Part shown: positions 2,279 through 64,000 of the stretch, piece after piece
How the letters are laid out: the number at the start of each line of letters is the position of its first letter
Position numbering within the stretch: position 1 is the stretch's first letter
DNA from: an uncultured Chloroflexia bacterium
GTDB lineage: Bacteria > Chloroflexota > Limnocylindria > Limnocylindrales > CSP1-4
NCBI GenBank assembly: GCA_963833225.1
Contig: CAWHXD010000017.1
Coordinates: forward strand, 288,001-352,000
Direction: 5' to 3'
Length of the DNA stretch: 64,000 nt
The notes under the pieces: model-generated
The model's database searches: none
What the model saw: the letters and a program-made list of their open reading frames with translations, nothing else
Told to the model about the DNA's origin: nothing
Made by a program: the position numbers and the translations under genes

Positions 2279-2620
2279 TCAGTTGAGGCGTTCCTGCCAG
2301 TCCGGGGGTACGCGGTCGGCCGGGCCGGGCCGGGCCTGGTCGAGTGGCCGGTTCAGTGGCGGCGCCAGCTCAGGCCCGTCCACGGGCTCGCCAGCGGCAA
2401 AGTCCCAGAACCAGTCCTCGCCGGGCTCGAAGCTCCGCGCCACCGGATGACCGGCGTCGGCGGCATGGCGGGTCGCGTGGCGGTTGGGCGAGGAGTCGCA
2501 GCAGCCGATGTGCCCGCAGGCGGCGCACCGGCGCAGGTTGAGCCACCAGCCGTCACCGGCCAGGCATTCCACGCAGCCGGTGCCGCTGGGCGGCACAGAG
2601 GGGTCGATCGGGACGGGCAT
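2279..2620 (-). CDS. UBP-type zinc finger protein
   Basis: CVECLAGDGWWLNLRRCAACGHIGCCDSSPNRHATRH...SFEPGEDWFW. Confidence 0.9.
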   Translation of the reverse strand: MPVPIDPSVPPSGTGCVECLAGDGWWLNLRRCAACGHIGCCDSSPNRHATRHAADAGHPVARSFEPGEDWFWDFAAGEPVDGPELAPPLNRPLDQARPGPADRVPPDWQERLN

Positions 2621-2741
2621 TCGGCACCTCGAAGCCTGCGGGTCGGGCCGAGCACCATGCATGGGACGCGCGGACCGGGCCGACCGTGCCCATCGTACGT
2701 GGTGGGCACGCCGCTGGTCGCGCGATGCTAGAGTCGCCTCG

Positions 2742-3443
2742 ATGAGCGACGACGTCCCGTTCCGCCTGCCGCCGGTGGACCCGTCCGTGGCCGACGATGT
2801 CCCCTCCGCCTCCCTGTCGCCCGAGCTGCTGGCCGCCCTGCTGGCCGACGGTGATGACGAGCTGGCGGCGTGGACCCTCCAGCACGCGATGGAGGACTCG
2901 TCGCGGACGGCGGTCTACGACGGGATCCTGCGCGATGCCATGACCCTCGTCGGCGAGAACTGGTCGACGGGCCGCTGGTCGGTGGCCGAGGAGCACCTCG
3001 CATCGCGCACGCTGCTCCGGACCCTCGATCGCATCGGCCCGGAGCTCGGGCCGGAGGGCCGCATCGGGTCGCTGGCCGTCCTCGCAGGCGTGGCCGGCGA
3101 GCAGCACATGATCGGGCTCGTCTGCCTCGAGCACACCCTCGCCGAGGACGGCTGGACCGTCGCGAATCTGGGAGCCGACCTGCCCGCCGCGGATCTCGGT
3201 ACGTTCGTGGCCCGCAACGAGATCGCCATCGTCTGCCTGTCCGCGCTCGATCGAGGCCTGGTGGGCAGCCTGGCCGATTCGGTGAAGGCGGTCAAGGACG
3301 CGAACGCCGGGATCCCCGTGATCGTGGGCGGGCAGATCGCCGCGGTGCCCGGCCTCGCAGCGACGGTGGGCGCCGACGGCGTCGTGCATTCGCTCGCCGA
3401 GGCGGTCGCTAGCGCGCGGAGTCACCGCCCGCGTCCGCCCTGA
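2742..3443 (+). CDS. Stand-alone cobalamin-binding protein (four-helix cap plus Rossmann domain, CarH/AerR-like)
   Basis: W-x9-EH ([12 protein letters not shown]), ExHxxG (EQHMIG), LS and IVGG motifs; no HTH. Confidence 0.85.
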
Positions 3444-5247
3444 TGCAGACGGAGACCGGCTCCCGGTACTCCCCGAAGACCTCGCGCAGCACGCGGCATT
3501 GCTCGCCGAGGGTGGCATAGGCCTGGGCGCAGCGGATGAAATGCGGCATCAGGTTCGTCTCGCTTGTTCCGGGCCGTGACGCCGCCTCGCGCAGCCCGGC
3601 CAGGGCCGCCGCCACCGCGACCCCGTCACGGTCCGCCCGGACCCGGGCCAGGCGGGCCAGGTGGCGCTCCTCCGAGCCAGCGGGCACCGACAGCACGGGA
3701 ACCCGGATCGGCTCCGCGTTCACGTACCGGTTGACCCCGACGATCGCGCGCTCGCCGGCATCGAACTCGCGCTGGAAGCGGTACGCCGAGTCGGCGATCT
3801 CGCGCTGCGGATAGCCCTCCTCGATGGCCCTGGTCATCCCGCCACGCCGGTCGATCTCGTCGAGGTACCGCCAGACTTCGCGCTCGACCCGGTTGGTCAG
3901 GCTCTCGACAAACCACGAGCCTCCGAGCGGGTCCACGGTGGACGCCACGCCCGTCTCCTCGAAGATCACCTGCTGCTGCCGCAGCGCGAGCAGCGCGGCC
4001 TCGGCGGTGGGGACGGCGAGCGCCTCGTCGTAGGCATCCGTGTGGAGCGACTGCGTCCCACCCAGGATCGCGGCGAGGGCCTGGGTCGCGACGCGGGTCA
4101 GGTTGTTGAGCGGCTGCTGCGGGGTCAGCGATACGCCCGCGGTCTGGGTGTGGAAGCGCATCCATGTCGAGCGCTCGTTCTCCGCCCGGTAGCGCTCGCT
4201 CATCAGCTTCCACCAGATCCGGCGCGATGCCCGGAACTTGGCGATCTCCTCGAAGAAGTCCGAGTGGCTGTTGAAGAAGAAGGACAGCCGCGGGGCGAAG
4301 TCGTCAACCCGGAGTCCGCGAGCGATGGCCGCCTCGACGTAGGCCATGCCGTCGGCGATGGTGAACGCGAGCTCCTGGACGGCCGTCGAACCCGCTTCGC
4401 GGATGTGGTAGCCGCTGATGGACACGGTGTTCCAGCGCGGCAGCTCGCGCGTCCCGAACTCGATCGTGTCCACGACCAGGCGCATCGACGGCTCGGGCGG
4501 GAACAGGAACTCCTTCTGGGCAACGTACTCCTTGAGGATGTCGTTCTGGATCGTGCCCTCGAGCCGTGCCCGGGGCACGCCGGACTTCTCGGCCGCGACG
4601 ATGTACATCGCCCAGATCGGCGCCGCCGGCGCGTTGATCGTCATCGAGGTGCTCACGCGATCGAGCGGCAGGCCCTCGAGCAGCAGCTCCATGTCGGCGA
4701 GGCTGCTGACCGCGACGCCGCACGTCCCGAACTCGCCCTCGGCCTCCGGGTCGTCCGTGTCGTAGCCGTAGAGCGTCGGCATGTCGTAGGCGACCGACAG
4801 GCCGGTCTGGCCGGCGTCAAGCAGCTGGCGGAAGCGGGCGTTGGTGTCCTCCGCGCTGCCGAATCCGGCGAACATGCGCATGGTCCACGGTCGCGAGCGG
4901 TAGCCGGTGGGATGGATGCCGCGGGTGAACGGCGGCTCACCGGGCATGCCCAGGTCGCGGAGCAGGTCCGCGTCGGCGTAGGGGCCGGCGCCCGTGCGCA
5001 GTGGATCGCCATGGTGGTCGACGGCGGTCGGTCCGCCGGGACCCGGGTGCTCGTACGGGCCGGTGGGCGTCGTGCCGTGATCGGCGTCACCCGCCAGGTC
5101 CCACGGACCGTACAGGCCCTCGACCGGAAGATCGCCGAGGGTGGTGAATGCGTCGCGGCGCTCCGGCAGCCGGTCGAGCGAGGGGGCGAGGCGCTCGATG
5201 CGCCACATGCGGCGGCGCGAGGCCCAGGGGTCGGTGGGATCGCTCAT
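3409..5247 (-). CDS. Methylmalonyl-CoA/acyl-CoA mutase large (substrate-binding) subunit, without a B12 domain
   Basis: [53 protein letters not shown] motifs. The real stop is probably after EPVSV (~3443), obscured by one extra base. Confidence 0.92.
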
Positions 5248-5305
5248 GGTCGCCGACTCTAGCACCCGGTCCCGACGAGCTTCCGCCGGCCGGCGTCAAG
5301 GACTC

Positions 5306-6117: not shown

Positions 6118-6732
6118 TCAGGGGGTGCCGAGGGTCTCCAGCAGGGCGGCCACCTTCGCGTCACCGAGATCCGCCGCGAGCAGGACCCGGACCACGTCCT
6201 CGCCCGCCACCTGCCAGGCGACAACCGTCTGGCCAGTGCCATCGGAGCCGAGGACGTCAAGCCGCTTCGCGGGAGTCCCTCCCACGGTCGTGTCGGAGCG
6301 CTGGAGCTTCTCCGTCCGGCGCGCGCTCTCGGCCGACAGGGCATAGAACTCCAGCATCTTCGTCGCGTCCAGGCCGTCCGCCTTGAACACGGCGAGGGTC
6401 AGGCCGCTCGTGCCGCCGGTCTGCCACGTCGCACCCGCGAACCGCAGCCCGGCGATCCCCGCATCGGCGAGCGATCCCAGCGCCTCGGGCGAGCAGACGC
6501 GGCCACTGTCCACGCTGTCCGGCGCTCGGCCCTCGTAGTCAGTGGCGAGCATGGCCTCGAGCTCCGGGTACGCACCCGGCTGCTGGCCCTCAGCGGGACA
6601 GGGAGCGGCTGGATCGAAGGTCACGACCACGGGATCGGACGCCGCGCAGGCGCCCAGCAGCAGCATGACGGCAAGCAGGCCGGCCGGGGCGAACAGGCTG
6701 GCCAGGAGGGGGCGGCGGCGATGTGTGGACAT
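6118..6732 (-). CDS. Putative lipoprotein
   Basis: Basic N-terminus, hydrophobic core and lipobox LLGAC. Confidence 0.75.
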   Translation of the reverse strand: MSTHRRRPLLASLFAPAGLLAVMLLLGACAASDPVVVTFDPAAPCPAEGQQPGAYPELEAMLATDYEGRAPDSVDSGRVCSPEALGSLADAGIAGLRFAGATWQTGGTSGLTLAVFKADGLDATKMLEFYALSAESARRTEKLQRSDTTVGGTPAKRLDVLGSDGTGQTVVAWQVAGEDVVRVLLAADLGDAKVAALLETLGTP

Positions 6733-6928
6733 TGCCGTGTGAGCGTACCGGCAGCGGCCTCAGCACGCCGGGCGGCGCGTCGCCACAGGGGGGCCGGTGG
6801 CCGTGTTGGCTCCCCCTTTGGTGCGCCCATGGCCGTCTGATGGTCCCGAGGGGTCCCCCGTCAGATGGTCCGGGCGGTGCGCGGGTGCGCCTGACCTTCG
6901 CTCGCCGCTGCCCCGGACGCGAGGCCCA

Positions 6929-6957
6929 TTGAGCCTCCATGGGTCGGCGGTTACGTT
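6929..6957 (+). promoter_or_regulatory. Candidate sigma70 promoter pointing into a non-coding region
   Basis: TTGAGC-N17-TACGTT. Confidence 0.45.
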
Positions 6958-7157
6958 GTCCCTGCGTTCGAAACGCGCCGACCCACGACGATCCGGGAGC
7001 ACCCTGGGGCGTCGGCCACGGATCGACCGGCCGGACAACTCGACCGTTGGGGACGCCTGACGGCACGGGGGTACCGTGCTCCGATCACGAGCCGAGTAAC
7101 TGGGCACCTCGGCCATCAGGCCCGGACGTACGAGGGCGGCTGCACTGATCAGGCGTC
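6935..7157 (+). ncRNA. Candidate structured ncRNA with a circularly permuted tRNA-like domain (two-piece-tmRNA-like or YrlA-like; 6S-like is an alternative)
   Basis: T-arm GCG-TTCGAAA-CGC (6964-6976), acceptor-like strands 6979-6985 and 7008-7014, GGATCGAC loop motif, helices 6942-61/7033-45 and 7052-60/7149-57; no convincing ORF. Confidence 0.45.
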
Positions 7158-7173
7158 ATCTGCACCCGTCATC

Positions 7174-7204
7174 TGCACCCCCGGTTCGTTGGGCCGGGGG
7201 TGCG
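7174..7204. terminator. GC-rich hairpin, probably a bidirectional terminator
   Basis: GCACCCCCGGTTC-gttg-GGCCGGGGGTGC; preceded by a 13-bp tandem duplication CGTCATCTGCACC (7154-7179). Confidence 0.55.
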
Positions 7205-7262
7205 TTCATGTCCCCGACGCCCCATCGCCGGTCGAGGGCGTCCGAACCGACGCGCGGCTTAG

Positions 7263-8289
7263 TGAAGTTCCCCGGTGAAGATGAGACTGGGTAGCGTGCC
7301 CTTCGAGGAGGGCACGGATGCCGGAGGTCAGGTCTCGGTCCTATGCGAACCCGCGGCGTCTGCCGCGCCGGAACCACTACCAGGAGGGCCCGGACTTCCT
7401 GTTCGTGGCGACGCAGGGTGGTCGTCCCCCTGACCTGGTCCTCGGGCCAGGCATCGCGGCGGTCGTTCGACGCCGCCGGGCCGCGCTCCGGCGCTGGGCG
7501 GAGGGAGTGCCGCTCGCCGGGATCTGCGCCGAGACCGGGTGCAGCCGGGCGAGCCTGTTCCGCTGGCGCACCCGCTTCGAGCAGGACGGTCTTGATGGAC
7601 TCCGGGATCGACCCCGGGTGGGACGACGGAGCGATCTGCCGCCCGCGCTCGAGCGGCTCATCCTCACCGTCCGCCTGCTGACCTACTGGAACAGCCGGCG
7701 GATCGCCGCCGAGTTCCGGAGGCGATCCGTCTGGCCGCTGACGCACGGCCAGGTCGACCGGGTCCTCGCCCGCCACGGGACGCACCGTCCGAGCTACGTC
7801 CGGACGCCGGGTCCGCGCTACGAGCGGGCCACCGTCAACGAGCTCTGGCACATCGACCTCAAGGGCCCGTTCTACTTCGTCGGGGCGACCGGCCTGGACA
7901 CCGTTCGTCGCGATCACCCGCACGATGCTCAGCCGCTTCCAGCGCAGCCTCTCCGAGCTCGCGATCCGCCACATCCGGACCCAGATCGACACGCCCTGGA
8001 CGAACGGCAAGATCGAGGCGTTCTGGCACACGCTTCAGGCGGAGGTCCTCGACCGCCAGCAGCTCGCCGATCTCGCCGCTGCCGAGGCGGCCGTCACCGG
8101 TTACGCCGGCTACTACAACTACCACCGGCTCCACGGCGAGCTCGACTGGCAGACACCGGCCGAGCGGTTCGACGGCACGCCGTTCACCGACCGCGGCTTC
8201 GGCAGCGTCCCGTCCCTCGCCGGCGTGGCCGCTCTACTCGACGCGATCCTGGCCGCCTGAGCCAGTCTCATCTTCACCGGGGAACTTCA
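7263..8289 (+). mobile_element. IS481-family insertion sequence, internally deleted (non-autonomous)
   Basis: Perfect 28-bp terminal inverted repeats (7263-7290 and 8262-8289) and a 5-bp target duplication CTTAG (7258-7262 and 8290-8294). Confidence 0.9.
7318..8260 (+). pseudogene. IS481-type DDE transposase pseudogene
   Basis: HTH (SRASLFRWRTRFEQDGLDGL) and ELWHIDLK, then a frame change at ~7893 into TPFV...NGKIEAFWHTL...YNYHRLH. The segment carrying the second catalytic Asp is missing. Confidence 0.85.
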
Positions 8290-8290
8290 C

Positions 8291-9028
8291 TTAGCGGTAG
8301 GGGTTCGACTGCCAGCCCGGCCGCGGCGGCCGGTGCACCCGCCTGATCCCACGGCGGTCCAATTCCGCCACGATCACCCGTGCCGCCATCGCAACGTCCG
8401 GCTGACGGACGATAGTGCTGGCGAGCCAGTCGATGTAGCTGGGCTCGAACGCCGCGATCTCGCCCAGCGTGTGGCCGTGGAACTTGCCGAAGGTGACCTC
8501 GGTCTCGAGCGCGTCGCTGAGCGCGGGCGGTTCTGGGGCCACGTGTCCAGCCCGGCGACCGCGCTCCATCGGGCCCGAGGGCTGCGAGGCGCGAAGCTCC
8601 GGTTCGGAGCGGTCATGGCGGAGCGGCGGCTGGCCCGTGAGCGAGAGCCGCAGCCCCGGCGGCGTCGTCGTCTGGTTCCGCGGATGGAATGTGGCGCTGG
8701 TGTCCACCCGTCCCGTCACCGGGCGGCTGCGGACGGCTGGGGGTGGACCACCGGCCTTCCATTGCGGATCCTGGGTGGCCGAGGTTCGGGCGCGGTCCGC
8801 CGGTGACCCGGGGCGGCGGCGCGGCTCATCGTCCGCTCCGGCACGCGTGAGGGCGGCGTAGGCGGCATTGATCTCGGCCATCCGCCGCGTGGCGCGCCGG
8901 GCGACGTCGGGATCGTCGCCGGTCAGGTCCGGGTGATGCCGGCGCGCGAGGGCACGCCAAGCAGCCTTGATGGCGTCGGGCGGGGTGCCCGGCGCGACGC
9001 CAAGCACGAGATGCGGATCCTTGGGCAC
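8291..9028 (-). CDS. J-domain (DnaJ-like) protein with C-terminal FGK..YIDW domain
   Basis: DPHLVLGV...HHPD...EINAAY J-domain; C-terminal VTFGKFHGHTLGEI...SYIDWL. Confidence 0.85.
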   Translation of the reverse strand: MPKDPHLVLGVAPGTPPDAIKAAWRALARRHHPDLTGDDPDVARRATRRMAEINAAYAALTRAGADDEPRRRPGSPADRARTSATQDPQWKAGGPPPAVRSRPVTGRVDTSATFHPRNQTTTPPGLRLSLTGQPPLRHDRSEPELRASQPSGPMERGRRAGHVAPEPPALSDALETEVTFGKFHGHTLGEIAAFEPSYIDWLASTIVRQPDVAMAARVIVAELDRRGIRRVHRPPRPGWQSNPYR

Positions 9029-27181: not shown

Positions 27182-27703
27182 TCAGGACCGGACGCCGAGG
27201 GGGATCCGCCACCGGGTCCGCCAACGTCCACCCCGGTCCTCCACGAGGACCTCGATCGTCGCCGCGCGCCGTTCCAGGGGCAGGGCGGACAAGGCATCGC
27301 CCAGGATCCGGTCGAGCGCGATGTCGGCGGAATCGGCGAGCGTCAGGTGCGGGACGATCTCGTCGAACAGGCCTTCGTACGGCAGGTACCCCGGGTAGCG
27401 GGCCATGACGGCCTCGGTCAGGCGCACGAAGGGCTCGGCTGGCTCGGGCACGAGGTAGGCAACGCCGGGGAAGCGCCCGACCCGCCGGAACTGGACGTCG
27501 AACGGTGGGTGCGTCCCGGCGATCTCGGCCAGCTCAGCACGGACCTCGAGGGTGAGGCGGGCAGCGGGCAGGAACGGGAACAGGATCGTGACATGCCCGG
27601 GCACGCCACCGGCAGCCGACCAGTCCCATTGCCGTCGGATCCGGACCAGGCTCGGCGGCAACGGCACCCGGACGATGATCGCGCTCCGCGTCTCGTCGCC
27701 CAT
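27182..27703 (-). CDS. 2H phosphoesterase (2'-5' RNA ligase family)
   Basis: Two HxT motifs: GHVTI and PHLTL. Confidence 0.88.
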   Translation of the reverse strand: MGDETRSAIIVRVPLPPSLVRIRRQWDWSAAGGVPGHVTILFPFLPAARLTLEVRAELAEIAGTHPPFDVQFRRVGRFPGVAYLVPEPAEPFVRLTEAVMARYPGYLPYEGLFDEIVPHLTLADSADIALDRILGDALSALPLERRAATIEVLVEDRGGRWRTRWRIPLGVRS

Positions 27704-27772
27704 CAACCGACGCTCCTGACCTTGCGCGCGGCGCCTTCGCCGGGATCCTTGCCCGGATCGATGCCCGGCGGG

Positions 27773-27848
27773 TGGCGCCCCCGGCAGGAATCGAACCTGC
27801 GACCTACCGCTTAGAAGGCGGCTGCTCTATCCGCTGAGCTACGGGGGC
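27773..27848 (-). tRNA. tRNA-Arg (anticodon TCT)
   Basis: GCCCCCGTAGCTCAGCGGATAGAGCAGCCGCCTTCTAAGCGGTAGGTCGCAGGTTCGATTCCTGCCGGGGGCGCCA cloverleaf with CCA end. Confidence 0.97.
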
Positions 27849-35871: not shown

Positions 35872-35948
35872 TGGTACCGCATACCGGATTCGAACCGGTG
35901 ATCTCCGCCTTGAGAGGGCGGTGTCCTGGGCCTCTAGACGAATGCGGC
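35872..35948 (-). tRNA. tRNA-Glu (anticodon CTC)
   Basis: GCCGCATTCGTCTAGAGGCCCAGGACACCGCCCTCTCAAGGCGGAGATCACCGGTTCGAATCCGGTATGCGGTACCA. Confidence 0.97.
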
Positions 35949-60717: not shown

Positions 60718-61701
60718 TCAATACGCGGCGAGCTTGCGGATCGCGTCGGCGATGCGGGCCGGGTTGAGCAGGAACCACTCCTCGAGGACGTGGTTGTAGG
60801 GCATCGCCGGCACGTCCGGGCCCGCGACCCGCGACACCGGCCCGTCGAGGTAGTCGAACGCCTCCTCGGCGACGATGGCGGCGATCTCCGCGCCATACCC
60901 GCCGAACTTGTTGTCCTCGTAGGCGATGAGGCACTTGCCGGTCTTGCGCACCGACCCGAGGAGCATGTCGCGATCGAGCGGCCGCAACGTCCGCAGGTCG
61001 ACCACCTCTACCTCGATCCCCTCTCCGGCCACCCGCTCCGCGGCCTCAAGGCTGTAGGCCACCATCAGGCCGTAGGCAACGAGCGTCACGTGCCGTCCGG
61101 GCCGCCGGATCGCCGCCCGCCCGAGGGGCACGGTCCAGTCCCCCGCCGGCACGTCGCCGCGCACGGACCGGTACATCTTCTTGTGCTCGAAGAACAGGAC
61201 CGGGTCCTCGTCCCGGACCGCCGACTTGAGCAGGCCCTTGGCGTCGTACGGGGTCGACGGGATCACGACCTTGAGCCCGGGGACGTGGGTGAAGAACGCC
61301 TCGACCGACTGGCTGTGGTACAGCGCGCCGTGGACGCCGCCGCCGTAGGGGGCGCGGACCACCATCGGGAGGCCGATCCCGCCGTTGGTGCGATAGCGCA
61401 TCCGCGCGGCTTCCGACACGAGCTGGTTGAACGCCGGGTGGATGAAGTCCGCGAACTGGATCTCGGCGATGGGGCGCAGGCCGTTGATCGCGGCCCCGAT
61501 CGAGGCCCCGATGATCATCGATTCGGTGAGCGGGGTGTCGATGACGCGCGCGTCACCGAACTCGGTCCACAGCCCGTCGGTGGCGAGGAACACGCCGCCC
61601 TTGCGCCCGACATCCTCGCCCAGGACGATCACGCTGCTGTCGCGCTGCATCTCCTCCACGAGACCTTCGCGGATCGCCTCGATCATCGTCCGGATGGCCA
61701 T
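60718..61701 (-). CDS. 2-oxoacid dehydrogenase E1 beta subunit
   Basis: GEDVG..GGVF, DTPLTE, EIQFADF, HSQS, DLRTL.PLD. Confidence 0.95.
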   Translation of the reverse strand: MAIRTMIEAIREGLVEEMQRDSSVIVLGEDVGRKGGVFLATDGLWTEFGDARVIDTPLTESMIIGASIGAAINGLRPIAEIQFADFIHPAFNQLVSEAARMRYRTNGGIGLPMVVRAPYGGGVHGALYHSQSVEAFFTHVPGLKVVIPSTPYDAKGLLKSAVRDEDPVLFFEHKKMYRSVRGDVPAGDWTVPLGRAAIRRPGRHVTLVAYGLMVAYSLEAAERVAGEGIEVEVVDLRTLRPLDRDMLLGSVRKTGKCLIAYEDNKFGGYGAEIAAIVAEEAFDYLDGPVSRVAGPDVPAMPYNHVLEEWFLLNPARIADAIRKLAAY

Positions 61702-62775
61702 CAGCCGTGCCTCCCGGTCAGCCCGGGGCCGGACGGGTGCCAGGGCGGCGGCGGCTCGTTGGCCGCCGGATCCGCGTACACGCCGTCGAGCGCCGTGAAC
61801 GGGTCGGCATCCGGCTCGGCCTCCGCGTGATCGGTGGCGTCCTCCACCAGCGCGGCGATCTCCGTGGCCAGGGCGCGCCTCGAGGTCCTCGGTCAGCACG
61901 CCGGCATCGCGCAGCTGGGCCCGGAAGATCGGCAGCGGATCGTGGGCGCGGCCCTCCGCCAGGTCAGACTCGGAGCGGTACTTCGTCTGCTGGTCGTCGG
62001 AGCTGTGCGCCGTGAGCCGGGTGACCACCGCCTCGACCAGCGTCGGCCCGCCTCCGGACCGCGCCCGGTCCACGGCCTCGCGCCCGACCCGATAGCACGC
62101 GAGGACGTCCGTCCCGTCGACGACCACGCCCGGGATCCCGTAGCCCGCCGCACGGGCGGCCACGCTGCCGCCGCCGACCTCTCGGTCCAGGGGCACGCTG
62201 ATCGCGTAGCCGTTGTTCTCGACCACGAACACGAACGGGAGCTGGTGGATCGAGGCGAAGTTGAGCGCCTCGTGGACGTCACCCTGGTTGGAGCTGCCCT
62301 CGCCCATCATCGCGACCGCGACCTGGCCGGTGCCGCGGATCTTCGCGGCCAGCGCGATGCCCGTCGCGTGCAGGATCTGGGTGGCCACCGGCGACGAGAC
62401 CGACACGATGTGGTGGGCCGGAGCGCCGTAGTGACCGGGCATCTGGCGCCCGCCCGAGCCCGGGTCGGAGGCCTTGGCGTACTGGGCGAGCATCACGTCG
62501 CGTGGCGTCATCCCGAACGCGAGGCAGGTGGCGATGGAGCGATAGAACGGGGCGACCCAGTCGTGACCCCGGCGCAGGGGCCAGGCAAGGCCGACCTGCG
62601 CGCCCTCGTGGCCCTGGCCGCTGATCACGAACGACAGGCGCCCGGCCCGGTTGAGCACCCACATCCGCTCGTCGATGGCCCGCGCGAGGGCCACGGTCCG
62701 GTACATGGCGAAGAGGTCCGCGTCGGACAGGCCGACCGATGCGGCGAGATCGCTGGCCCCGTGGGTGTCCGTCAT
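61701..62775 (-). CDS. 2-oxoacid (branched-chain-type) dehydrogenase E1 alpha subunit, +1 frameshift at ~61872
   Basis: ISGQGHE, GRQMPGH, GEGSSNQGD...ENN TPP motif, HSSDD..YR; corrected C-terminus ends in a TGATG overlap with E1 beta. Confidence 0.92.
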
Positions 62776-62822
62776 TCCATCCCTCCCGTGGACGGGCGGA
62801 TCGGCATGGATATGGATGGCCC

Positions 62823-64000
62823 CTAGAAGTTGATGGCCCGGCCGTCGACCGCCATCGCGGTCTCGCCCAGGATCTCCGAGAACGTGGGGTGGGCGTGGGT
62901 CGTCGCCCCGATCTCCCAGGGCGTCGCCTCCAGGGTCATGGCCAGCGACGCTTCTGCGATCAGGTCGGTGGCGTGCGGCCCGATGATGTGGATGCCCGAG
63001 CGTCTCGTCGGTGTCGCGGTTGGCGATGATCTTGGTGAAGCCCTCGTACTCGCCCCCGATGATCGCCTTGCCGATCGCCTGGAACGGGACCTTGGCCACC
63101 TTGACCGGGAGGTCCTGCGCCTCGCACTGCGCCTGGGTCAGCCCCACCGAGGCGATCTCCGGGCGGCAGTAGGTGGCGCGGGGCTGCTTCACATAGTCCA
63201 TCTCGTGGACATCCGGGTCGCCGACGATCGTGTGGACCGCGATGATCCCCTCGTGGGCCGCCGTGTGCGCGAGCTGGAGCCCGCCGACGATGTCCCCGAT
63301 CGCGTACAGGTGCGGCTCCTTCGTCCGCAGGTGGCCGTCCACCTTGACGAGGCCGCGATCGAGCTCCGCGCCCGTGGTCTCGAGGCCGACGTCCTCCGTG
63401 TTCACGGCACGGCCGGCCGCGACCAGGAGCATCTCTGCCGCGAGCTCCTTCGCCTCGCCGCCCTCGGGGCCAACCGTCAGCCGCACCCCGCCGTCGTCGG
63501 CGATGACGCTGGTCGCGTCGAAGCGGGCATTGGTGATGACCGTGATCCCGCGGCGATTGAAGCTGCGCTCGAGCTCCTTGCTGACCTCGGCGTCCTCGAG
63601 CGGGACGATGGCCGGCAGGTACTCCAGCAGGGTGACCTTCGCGCCGAGGTCGTGGTACATCGACGCAAACTCCACGCCGACCGCCCCGGCCCCGACCACG
63701 ATGATGCTGGCCGGCATCGAGTCGCTCCGGAGCACGTCATCGGAGGTCACGATCCGCTTGCCGTCGGGGACGATCCCCGGCAGCGACTTGACCCGCGAGC
63801 CCGTCGCCAGCACGACATCCGTGCCGCTGAGCACGCGCTCGCCACCCGCGCCCGGGGTGCCGTCCTCGCCGGCCAGCTGCACGCGGACCTTCGTCGGCCC
63901 GTCCAGCCGGCCGCGCCCGGCGATCCAGGTCACGTCGTTCTTCTTGACCAGGCTCTGGAGGCCCTTCCACATCCGGGTCACGACCTGCTCGCGCCGCTTG
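62823..64000 (-). CDS. lpdA: Dihydrolipoamide dehydrogenase (5' end outside window), +1 frameshift at ~62996
   Basis: ATGS, GAGAVGVE, AIGD, LAH; corrected C-terminus GIHIIG...HAHPTFSE...GRAINF*. Confidence 0.93.

Follow-up and report, generated by a model that had tools for sequence, protein, structure and literature searches.

Permuted, two-piece tmRNA has been reported from some members of the alpha- and beta-proteobacteria and the cyanobacteria, and from jakobid mitochondria; its gene carries the T-arm first, the two pieces rebuild a tRNA-like domain, and the tmRNAs of jakobid mitochondria occur without the tag and the pseudoknots (PMC3985003). The raiA motif RNA is described as a well-folded transcript that is made independently from a single gene copy; many of its nucleotides are conserved, and it has no expression platform (PMC10861870). 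A first-pass annotation, made from the DNA letters alone, had read a short intergenic element of a Chloroflexota genome as a circularly permuted two-piece tmRNA, or as a non-chargeable tRNA mimic derived from one. Here, we compared that element with its homologues. The RNA gene stood and the tmRNA identity did not. The locus is very probably a real structured RNA gene, and its best explanation, which we hold with moderate confidence, is a stand-alone, lineage-specific structured non-coding RNA that would act in trans, perhaps through a protein or ligand partner. No described RNA family takes in this RNA.

The DNA examined was a 64-kb high-GC window (that is, the whole stretch of DNA analysed) from an uncultured Chloroflexia bacterium, of which the region 6600-7500 was inspected directly. 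Codon-phase GC is flat across 6740-7340, which leaves about 580 nt as non-coding. The element lies in this interval, and the genes around it are entered in Table 1. On the left side, neither the lipoprotein-like protein nor the 152-aa protein received a family assignment in NCBIfam or Pfam. The gene at 3409-5265 (minus strand) encodes an acyl-CoA mutase large subunit without a B12 domain of its own; it overlaps tail-to-tail, by about 35 nt, a plus-strand gene (2484-3443) for a protein with B12-binding and B12-binding_2 domains, which also gave a weak CarH-like match far below the cut-off. The B12-domain protein, the mutase and the lipoprotein form a cobalamin-related neighbourhood that adjoins the RNA. 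Because these neighbours are B12-dependent, cobalamin and other riboswitches were looked for, and Rfam gave no match to cobalamin, c-di-AMP or other riboswitches on either strand. Elsewhere in the window, a 1,087-aa open reading frame (60721-63981, minus strand) joins an N-terminal pyridine-nucleotide disulphide oxidoreductase (E3-like) to E1_dh, Transket_pyr and Transketolase_C domains; it encodes an unusual 2-oxoacid dehydrogenase in which E3 and E1 are fused, or else the frame has been called too long.

On the right side, an IS481-family insertion of 1,027 bp (7263-8289) stands between the RNA and the convergent DnaJ-like gene. It is flanked by a 5-bp direct repeat, CTTAG (7258-62 / 8290-94), has terminal inverted repeats of about 28-34 nt that are 97% identical, and has gone in precisely at the DnaJ-like gene's stop codon, separating this gene from the terminator of the RNA. 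This insertion is missing in 11/11 related loci. Its transposase is split, the HTH part being read in the frame of 7318 and the rve_3 part in that of 7925-8260, and GC3 shifts phase near 7850-7900; since the transposase is split, the insertion is probably inactive or dependent on a frameshift. Comparison with plasmid and phage records gave no similarity.

To collect homologues, we used a genome scan anchored on the adjacent lipoprotein, which yielded 11 loci, taken as 20-kb stretches, and, with the window, 12 sequences. All 11 come from metagenome-assembled Chloroflexota (uncultured Chloroflexia, Candidatus Limnocylindrales or Chloroflexi bacterium RBG_16_72_14). The 12 sequences represent about seven lineages, all reached through one syntenic anchor, and the covariation that they offer is thin. 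Amino-acid identity of the lipoprotein across the 11 loci is 46-65%. The intergenic element was kept in 11/11 loci in identical position and orientation, at a nucleotide identity of 70-87% (blastn) and with nhmmer E-values from 3e-13 to 4e-79, and its conservation roughly equals or exceeds that of the neighbouring coding DNA. Across the 12 sequences, 77 of 174 core positions are invariant and the mean column identity is 80%; the invariant positions often fall in bulges, internal loops and the tail. The RNA gene was found as a single copy in each of the 12 sources, with nhmmer E-values between 1e-45 and 1e-64. When the core was turned into a covariance model, this scored the 12 copies at 131.6-178.6 bits and the next best site, in 273,454 bases, at 15.7 bits; we count one copy per locus because this model finds nothing else above 15.7 bits.

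Gene order in the relatives is the divergent lipoprotein gene, the element and the 3' end of the convergent DnaJ-like gene, which ends 4-40 nt past the terminator hairpin. The DnaJ-like neighbour is convergent; therefore the element is no leader of a downstream gene. A riboswitch or other cis-acting leader calls for a regulated gene downstream on the same strand, and in all 11 relatives with enough flank the neighbour is convergent; gene position thus excludes a cis leader. Furthermore, the alignment of the conserved core holds indels of 1, 2, 4 and 5 nt. No open reading frame is shared across the 12 homologues, and two of them are without any frame of at least 25 codons on either strand.

Comparison also set the limits of the gene. 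The first-pass annotation had placed a promoter, TTGAGC-17-TACGTT (6929-34/6952-57), before the RNA and a hairpin (7174-7204) after it, and the comparison puts its 5' and 3' boundaries at these very elements. The spacer between the -35 and -10 boxes is 17 nt long in eight sequences, 16 nt in one and 18 nt in three, and its sequence is not conserved. We take the site for a promoter rather than an RNA helix because conserved hexamers flank a non-conserved spacer of near-fixed length. Strict sigma-70 promoter and terminator scans returned no site, and the hairpin has no canonical T-run; with the sigma-70 scan empty, the promoter call depends on the conservation pattern. From that pattern we infer a sigma-70-type promoter at 6929-57, which would start transcription near 6964. 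By the same promoter signature, the segment 6935-61, which the annotation had taken for one strand of a stem, lies upstream of the transcript.

The strand follows from the pairs themselves. G-U pairs make up 64 of the 663 paired cells of the whole consensus, and we assign the RNA to the plus strand because these cells would be A-C mismatches on the opposite strand. The terminator hairpin, which in the relatives also lies beside the point where the convergent DnaJ-like gene ends, has a U-G on the plus strand at one pair in four sequences. The predicted RNA is about 245 nt long in the window and about 232 nt in the relatives, which are without the 13-nt duplication: its second copy is missing from 11/11 relatives and occurs in the window only. 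The duplication lengthens the tail and leaves the conserved core and the hairpin unaffected. A further, strongly conserved block (6832-6905) precedes the promoter and lies some 100-170 nt before the start of the divergent lipoprotein gene; we found no conserved helix in it on either strand. Its composite motif occurs once per locus at this block in 11 of 12 sources, with two other matches elsewhere. The block looks like an operator and is putatively common to both divergent units.

Table 1. Features of the predicted RNA gene and of its surroundings (window numbering).
Feature	Position	Strand	Remarks
Conserved upstream block	6832-6905	none	Two GATGGTCC boxes 25 nt apart and a GC-rich composite motif; kept in 12/12
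-35 box	6929-6934	+	ATTG core invariant in 12/12
-10 box	6952-6957	+	TACGTT; TACGGT in some relatives; TAGTCT/TAGTGT in L007/L009/L010
Whole predicted RNA gene	6964-7210	+	5' end inferred from promoter, 3' end from terminator
P0, 5'-terminal 3-bp hairpin	6964-6976	+	T-loop-like 7-nt loop; in 9/12 sequences
P1, closing helix	6977-6984 / 7134-7140	+	100% of cells paired over 6 pairs
P2, hairpin with 5-bp stem	6993-7007	+	95% of cells paired; loop 5-9 nt, sequence free
P3, long irregular arm (94 nt)	7008-7101	+	Helices paired in 90-100% of cells
P3, lower pairings	7008-09/7100-01; 7012-16/7091-95; 7019-24/7083-89	+	A7087 bulged
P3, upper pairings	7029-34/7074-80; 7039-42/7066-69	+
P3, apical hairpin	7045-51/7056-62	+	Conserved four-base loop 7052-55; pairs in 97.6% of cells
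P4, 4-bp hairpin with 4-nt loop	7111-7122	+	Stem invariant in 12/12
Conserved 3' tail, predicted single-stranded	7141-7150	+	7/10 positions invariant; none paired in consensus
13-nt tandem duplication (7154-66 = 7167-79)	7154-7179	+	Copies 100% identical; between core and terminator
Terminator hairpin, 10-bp stem	7175-7203 (7175-84/7194-7203)	+	Both-sided changes in 5/8 counted pairs
Lipoprotein-like ORF, 204 aa	6118-6732	-	Left of RNA element, divergent
ORF, 152 aa		-	Left side
Methylmalonyl-CoA-mutase-family gene	3409-5265	-	Left side
IS481-type transposase, two frames	from 7318		Right of element
DnaJ/ExoX_C gene	8291-9028	-	Beyond the IS481-type transposase
tRNA-Arg(TCT)	27773-27848	-	Ordinary tRNA gene
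tRNA-Glu(CTC)	35872-35948	-	Ordinary tRNA gene

A consensus of 56 pairs was computed with RNAalifold on the 12 sequences and scored on the same alignment that produced it; 95.9% of its 663 cells are paired. Both-sided changes occur at 14 pairs, compared with 0-3 when the partners were slid by 1-3 columns. The observed covariation score was reached by 0 of 500 shuffles, in a control that favours structures derived from the same sequences. Folded singly, the window sequence is only mildly better than its shuffles (plus strand, z = -2.10, with 4 of 200 shuffles equal or better; minus strand, z = -1.67). When each sequence was folded singly and without constraint, P1 and the middle of P3 were recovered in 12/12.

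The helices differ in how much change they display. In P3, both-sided changes were found at 7022/7085, 7023/7084, 7029/7080, 7030/7079, 7032/7076, 7046/7061 and 7050/7057, and much of the arm near its base is invariant. P1 has one compensatory change, from G-C to A-U, in L005. Because the stem of P4 is invariant, covariation neither supports nor contradicts it. P0 varies: in L007, L009 and L010, P1 lies 10 nt closer to the -10 box and the P0 loop has another sequence. The same invariant strands could pair in another way (6977-82/7011-16 together with 7091-94/7137-40), against which only L005 argues. Two compensatory changes also occur in a local pairing, 7020-26/7040-46, which is at odds with P3 and was left out of the model; an alternative or switching fold may exist.

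We then set the tRNA-like arrangement of the first-pass annotation beside this consensus. Every string that it had named is in the DNA, at 6935-39, 6942-47, 6955-61, 6979-88, 6989-7007, 7008-14, 7015-27 and 7033-52, as are the 3-bp hairpin with a T-loop-like 7-nt loop (6964-76), the 9-bp complement 7052-60/7149-57 and TAACTG (7097-7102). In the window there are local resemblances to a two-piece tmRNA. A T-loop-like hairpin comes first, directly before a strand complementary to 7009-16, and is followed by a G-rich strand in which GGGG precedes a GGAUCGAC-like string; this T-arm-first order is that of permuted tmRNA genes (PMC3985003), and the total size and the possession of a promoter and a terminator are also comparable. 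The annotation had named a lack of conservation and covariation as refuting its reading; both are present, but the covariation supports another fold than the one proposed. On the 12 sequences the tRNA-like arrangement pairs in 73.2% of cells overall, and the helices that covary cannot coexist with a tRNA-like domain, the very thing that a two-piece tmRNA rebuilds and that is missing here.

Taken piece by piece, the proposed joining helix has its 5' strand upstream of the predicted start, and its promoter-spacer segment pairs in 59.2% of cells; a further joining segment, 6955-61/7033-39, pairs in 71.4%, with one pair unpaired in 10/12. What had been named a T-arm is 3 bp only, pairs in 88.9% of cells and is missing or altered in 3/12. 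The presumed acceptor stem (6979-84/7009-14) pairs in 83.3% of cells and has a C-C mismatch in 12/12, its other five pairs being invariant or nearly so; in the consensus fold both strands have other partners. Neither the G3-U70 alanine determinant (no G-U at position 3) nor an encoded CCA after the acceptor strand is present in any of the 12 sequences. Of the GGGG taken for the tmRNA 5' end, the first two G lie in P2, and the intervening hairpin that the annotation had drawn at 6989-7007 is itself conserved, with 95% of cells paired. The supposed D-loop motif, GGATCGAC, turned out to be one strand of the helix with 7083-89; there, A-U changes to G-C or G-U and U-A to C-G or U-G. The 9-bp helix 7052-60/7149-57 is complete only in the window and its nearest relatives, L008, L001 and L002; elsewhere it shrinks to 2-4 bp, and over the 12 sequences 76.3% of its cells are paired. 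The apical hairpin of P3 is in competition with this helix, which we treat as lineage-specific or fortuitous.

The features outside the tRNA-like part fared no better. The third pair of the pk1-like stem forms in 1/12 sequences. The frame from 7104 reads as had been given, and the 12 sequences share no tag frame after TAAC, no common ending and no ...AA-stop; the length of this segment varies by 8-12 nt, not in threes. Since the tmRNAs of jakobid mitochondria do without a tag, the missing tag alone is not fatal. ARAGORN found no tmRNA in the window, in the region searched by itself in tmRNA mode or in the 11 loci, and the Rfam tmRNA-clan models gave no match even at E<=10 on the window region, L007 and L006. 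At a lowered threshold (80%), ARAGORN drew two 94-99-nt 'tRNAs' within 6700-7450, a Pro at 7012-7105 and a Val on the other strand; we regard these as noise, given that the default and tmRNA modes return none and that their span is the P3 arm. A longer non-coding RNA with a permuted tRNA-like module, as the annotation saw it, also recalls YrlA and the bacterial Y RNAs. Here that module is not conserved, and, in keeping with the annotated lack of smpB and rsr, a scan of 50 open reading frames of the window turned up neither an SmpB nor a TROVE/Ro60 domain.

Searches of known families were extended to all 4227 models of Rfam 15. At the gathering score, the whole window gave nothing except the two tRNAs, and these two genes are its sole Rfam or ARAGORN matches; an open reading frame for a LigT-type 2'-5' RNA ligase (27185-27706) directly adjoins tRNA-Arg. 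At E<=10, nothing relevant fell on 6700-7450 or on its counterparts in L007 and L006, and at E<=1 nothing was found on the whole of L003, L005 and L011. Sub-threshold matches (ffh sRNA, the L31 leader, miRNAs and Streptomyces sRNAs) fall on the terminator or the flanks and were set aside. In the open-access literature searched we found no description of this RNA or of a permuted tmRNA in Chloroflexota, and open-access full texts held nothing relevant for Limnocylindria or for structured non-coding RNA with covariation in Chloroflex*.

Among described RNAs, the raiA motif RNA and the other large orphan structured non-coding RNAs are alike in kind. They too are independent, single-copy transcripts (the transcript being a predicted one here) of about 200 nt or more, with many highly conserved nucleotides outside the helices, a multi-stem fold backed by covariation and a gene context that does not reveal function (PMC10861870). 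The present RNA differs in that the Rfam raiA model does not match it in sequence or structure; it also belongs to a different phylum, has no pseudoknot in its predicted fold and is so far known from 12 genomes, against more than 2,500 species for the raiA motif. It resembles the raiA motif RNA in kind only and is no member of that family.

On the preferred reading, a stand-alone gene would give a plus-strand non-coding RNA of about 230-245 nt that starts near 6964 and ends at the hairpin 7175-7203. The RNA would fold into a core made of the closing helix P1, the hairpin P2, the 94-nt arm P3 with its four-base loop and the hairpin P4, with the conserved single-stranded tail between this core and the terminator. 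We suggest that it acts in trans, as a tertiary-structured molecule that may bind a protein or, less likely, a small ligand; this is proposed because nearly half of the core is invariant across a bacterial class and no gene lies downstream on the same strand. In how its nucleotides are conserved, the RNA is closer to riboswitch aptamers, ribozymes and RNP RNAs than to base-pairing sRNAs. If the RNA gene is taken as real, binding of a protein or ligand would be its tentative mode of action, put forward as a possibility short of a probable one. We do not expect the RNA to work as a tmRNA, as a riboswitch leader or simply as a base-pairing sRNA.

The alternative that survives best, although we consider it unlikely, is a base-pairing regulatory sRNA in which the tail 7141-50 or a conserved loop would be the seed and the rest a stabilising scaffold. 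A stand-alone unit with its own predicted promoter and terminator fits such an sRNA, as does an invariant, predicted-unpaired tail just 5' of the terminator, the usual seed site. However, sRNAs of this type normally conserve the seed and the terminator only, whereas here the invariant positions are spread over the core, and the terminator is without the U-tail used by Hfq-type sRNAs. Complements of the tail in the window and the loci were scattered one-mismatch matches without a pattern.

The RNA might instead be a divergent relative of 6S RNA, able to bind RNA polymerase because it mimics an open promoter; we judge this very unlikely. In such a model, P1 would serve as the closing stem and P3 as the terminal arm, and the central bubble would consist of the junction strands together with P2 and P4. 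Size and an independent transcription unit suit this model, and the layout, a terminal helix followed by a loose middle of two junction strands and a long arm, is that of a stand-alone, abundant-type RNA such as 6S RNA (SsrS). Sequence conservation among 6S RNAs is low, so family models can miss them. Against this, the 6S models gave no match even at E<=10 on three homologues, where a strong one would, by the first-pass annotation, have refuted its own reading; the closing helix is only 6-8 bp long, the junction strands carry conserved hairpins, the fold is branched rather than rod-like, and the sequence is conserved far above what is typical of 6S.

It is highly improbable that the locus holds no RNA gene. 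It would then be a conserved DNA region that controls the divergent lipoprotein-mutase operon, a gene for a small protein, or no more than the stretch where the DnaJ-like gene terminates. Its position between divergent and convergent genes would suit a reading of this kind, the operator-like block lies just upstream, and the hairpin could equally terminate the DnaJ-like gene. Nevertheless, compensatory changes that keep helices and 64 G-U cells on one strand are unexpected of protein-binding DNA; the absence of a shared frame and the frame-breaking indels speak against a protein, and a conserved core of about 240 nt is far longer than a terminator. Finally, the permuted tmRNA or tmRNA-derived tRNA mimic is scarcely credible and may be taken as largely refuted already, its order of tmRNA-like strings being outweighed by the acceptor, T-arm, joining-helix, pk1 and tag results given above.

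A fourth lineage with permuted tmRNA, which would have been striking if true, is thus not borne out, and the case illustrates that tmRNA-like strings in GC-rich sequence can arise by coincidence. To our knowledge, no non-coding RNA has been described from this bacterial class. Orphan RNAs as conserved as this one have repeatedly proved to be RNP subunits, ribozymes or sensors. Quite possibly, though we stop short of calling it probable, the RNA is the founding member of an undescribed class of medium-sized, tertiary-structured non-coding RNAs specific to uncultured Limnocylindria-type Chloroflexota, with nucleotides conserved to the degree seen in riboswitches or RNPs; it could then be the RNA subunit of an undescribed RNP or sense a ligand in trans, and the conserved operator-like block might couple its regulation to that of the divergent lipoprotein / B12-dependent mutase operon. 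If expressed, it would be a well-delimited orphan structured non-coding RNA from a class known only through metagenome-assembled genomes.
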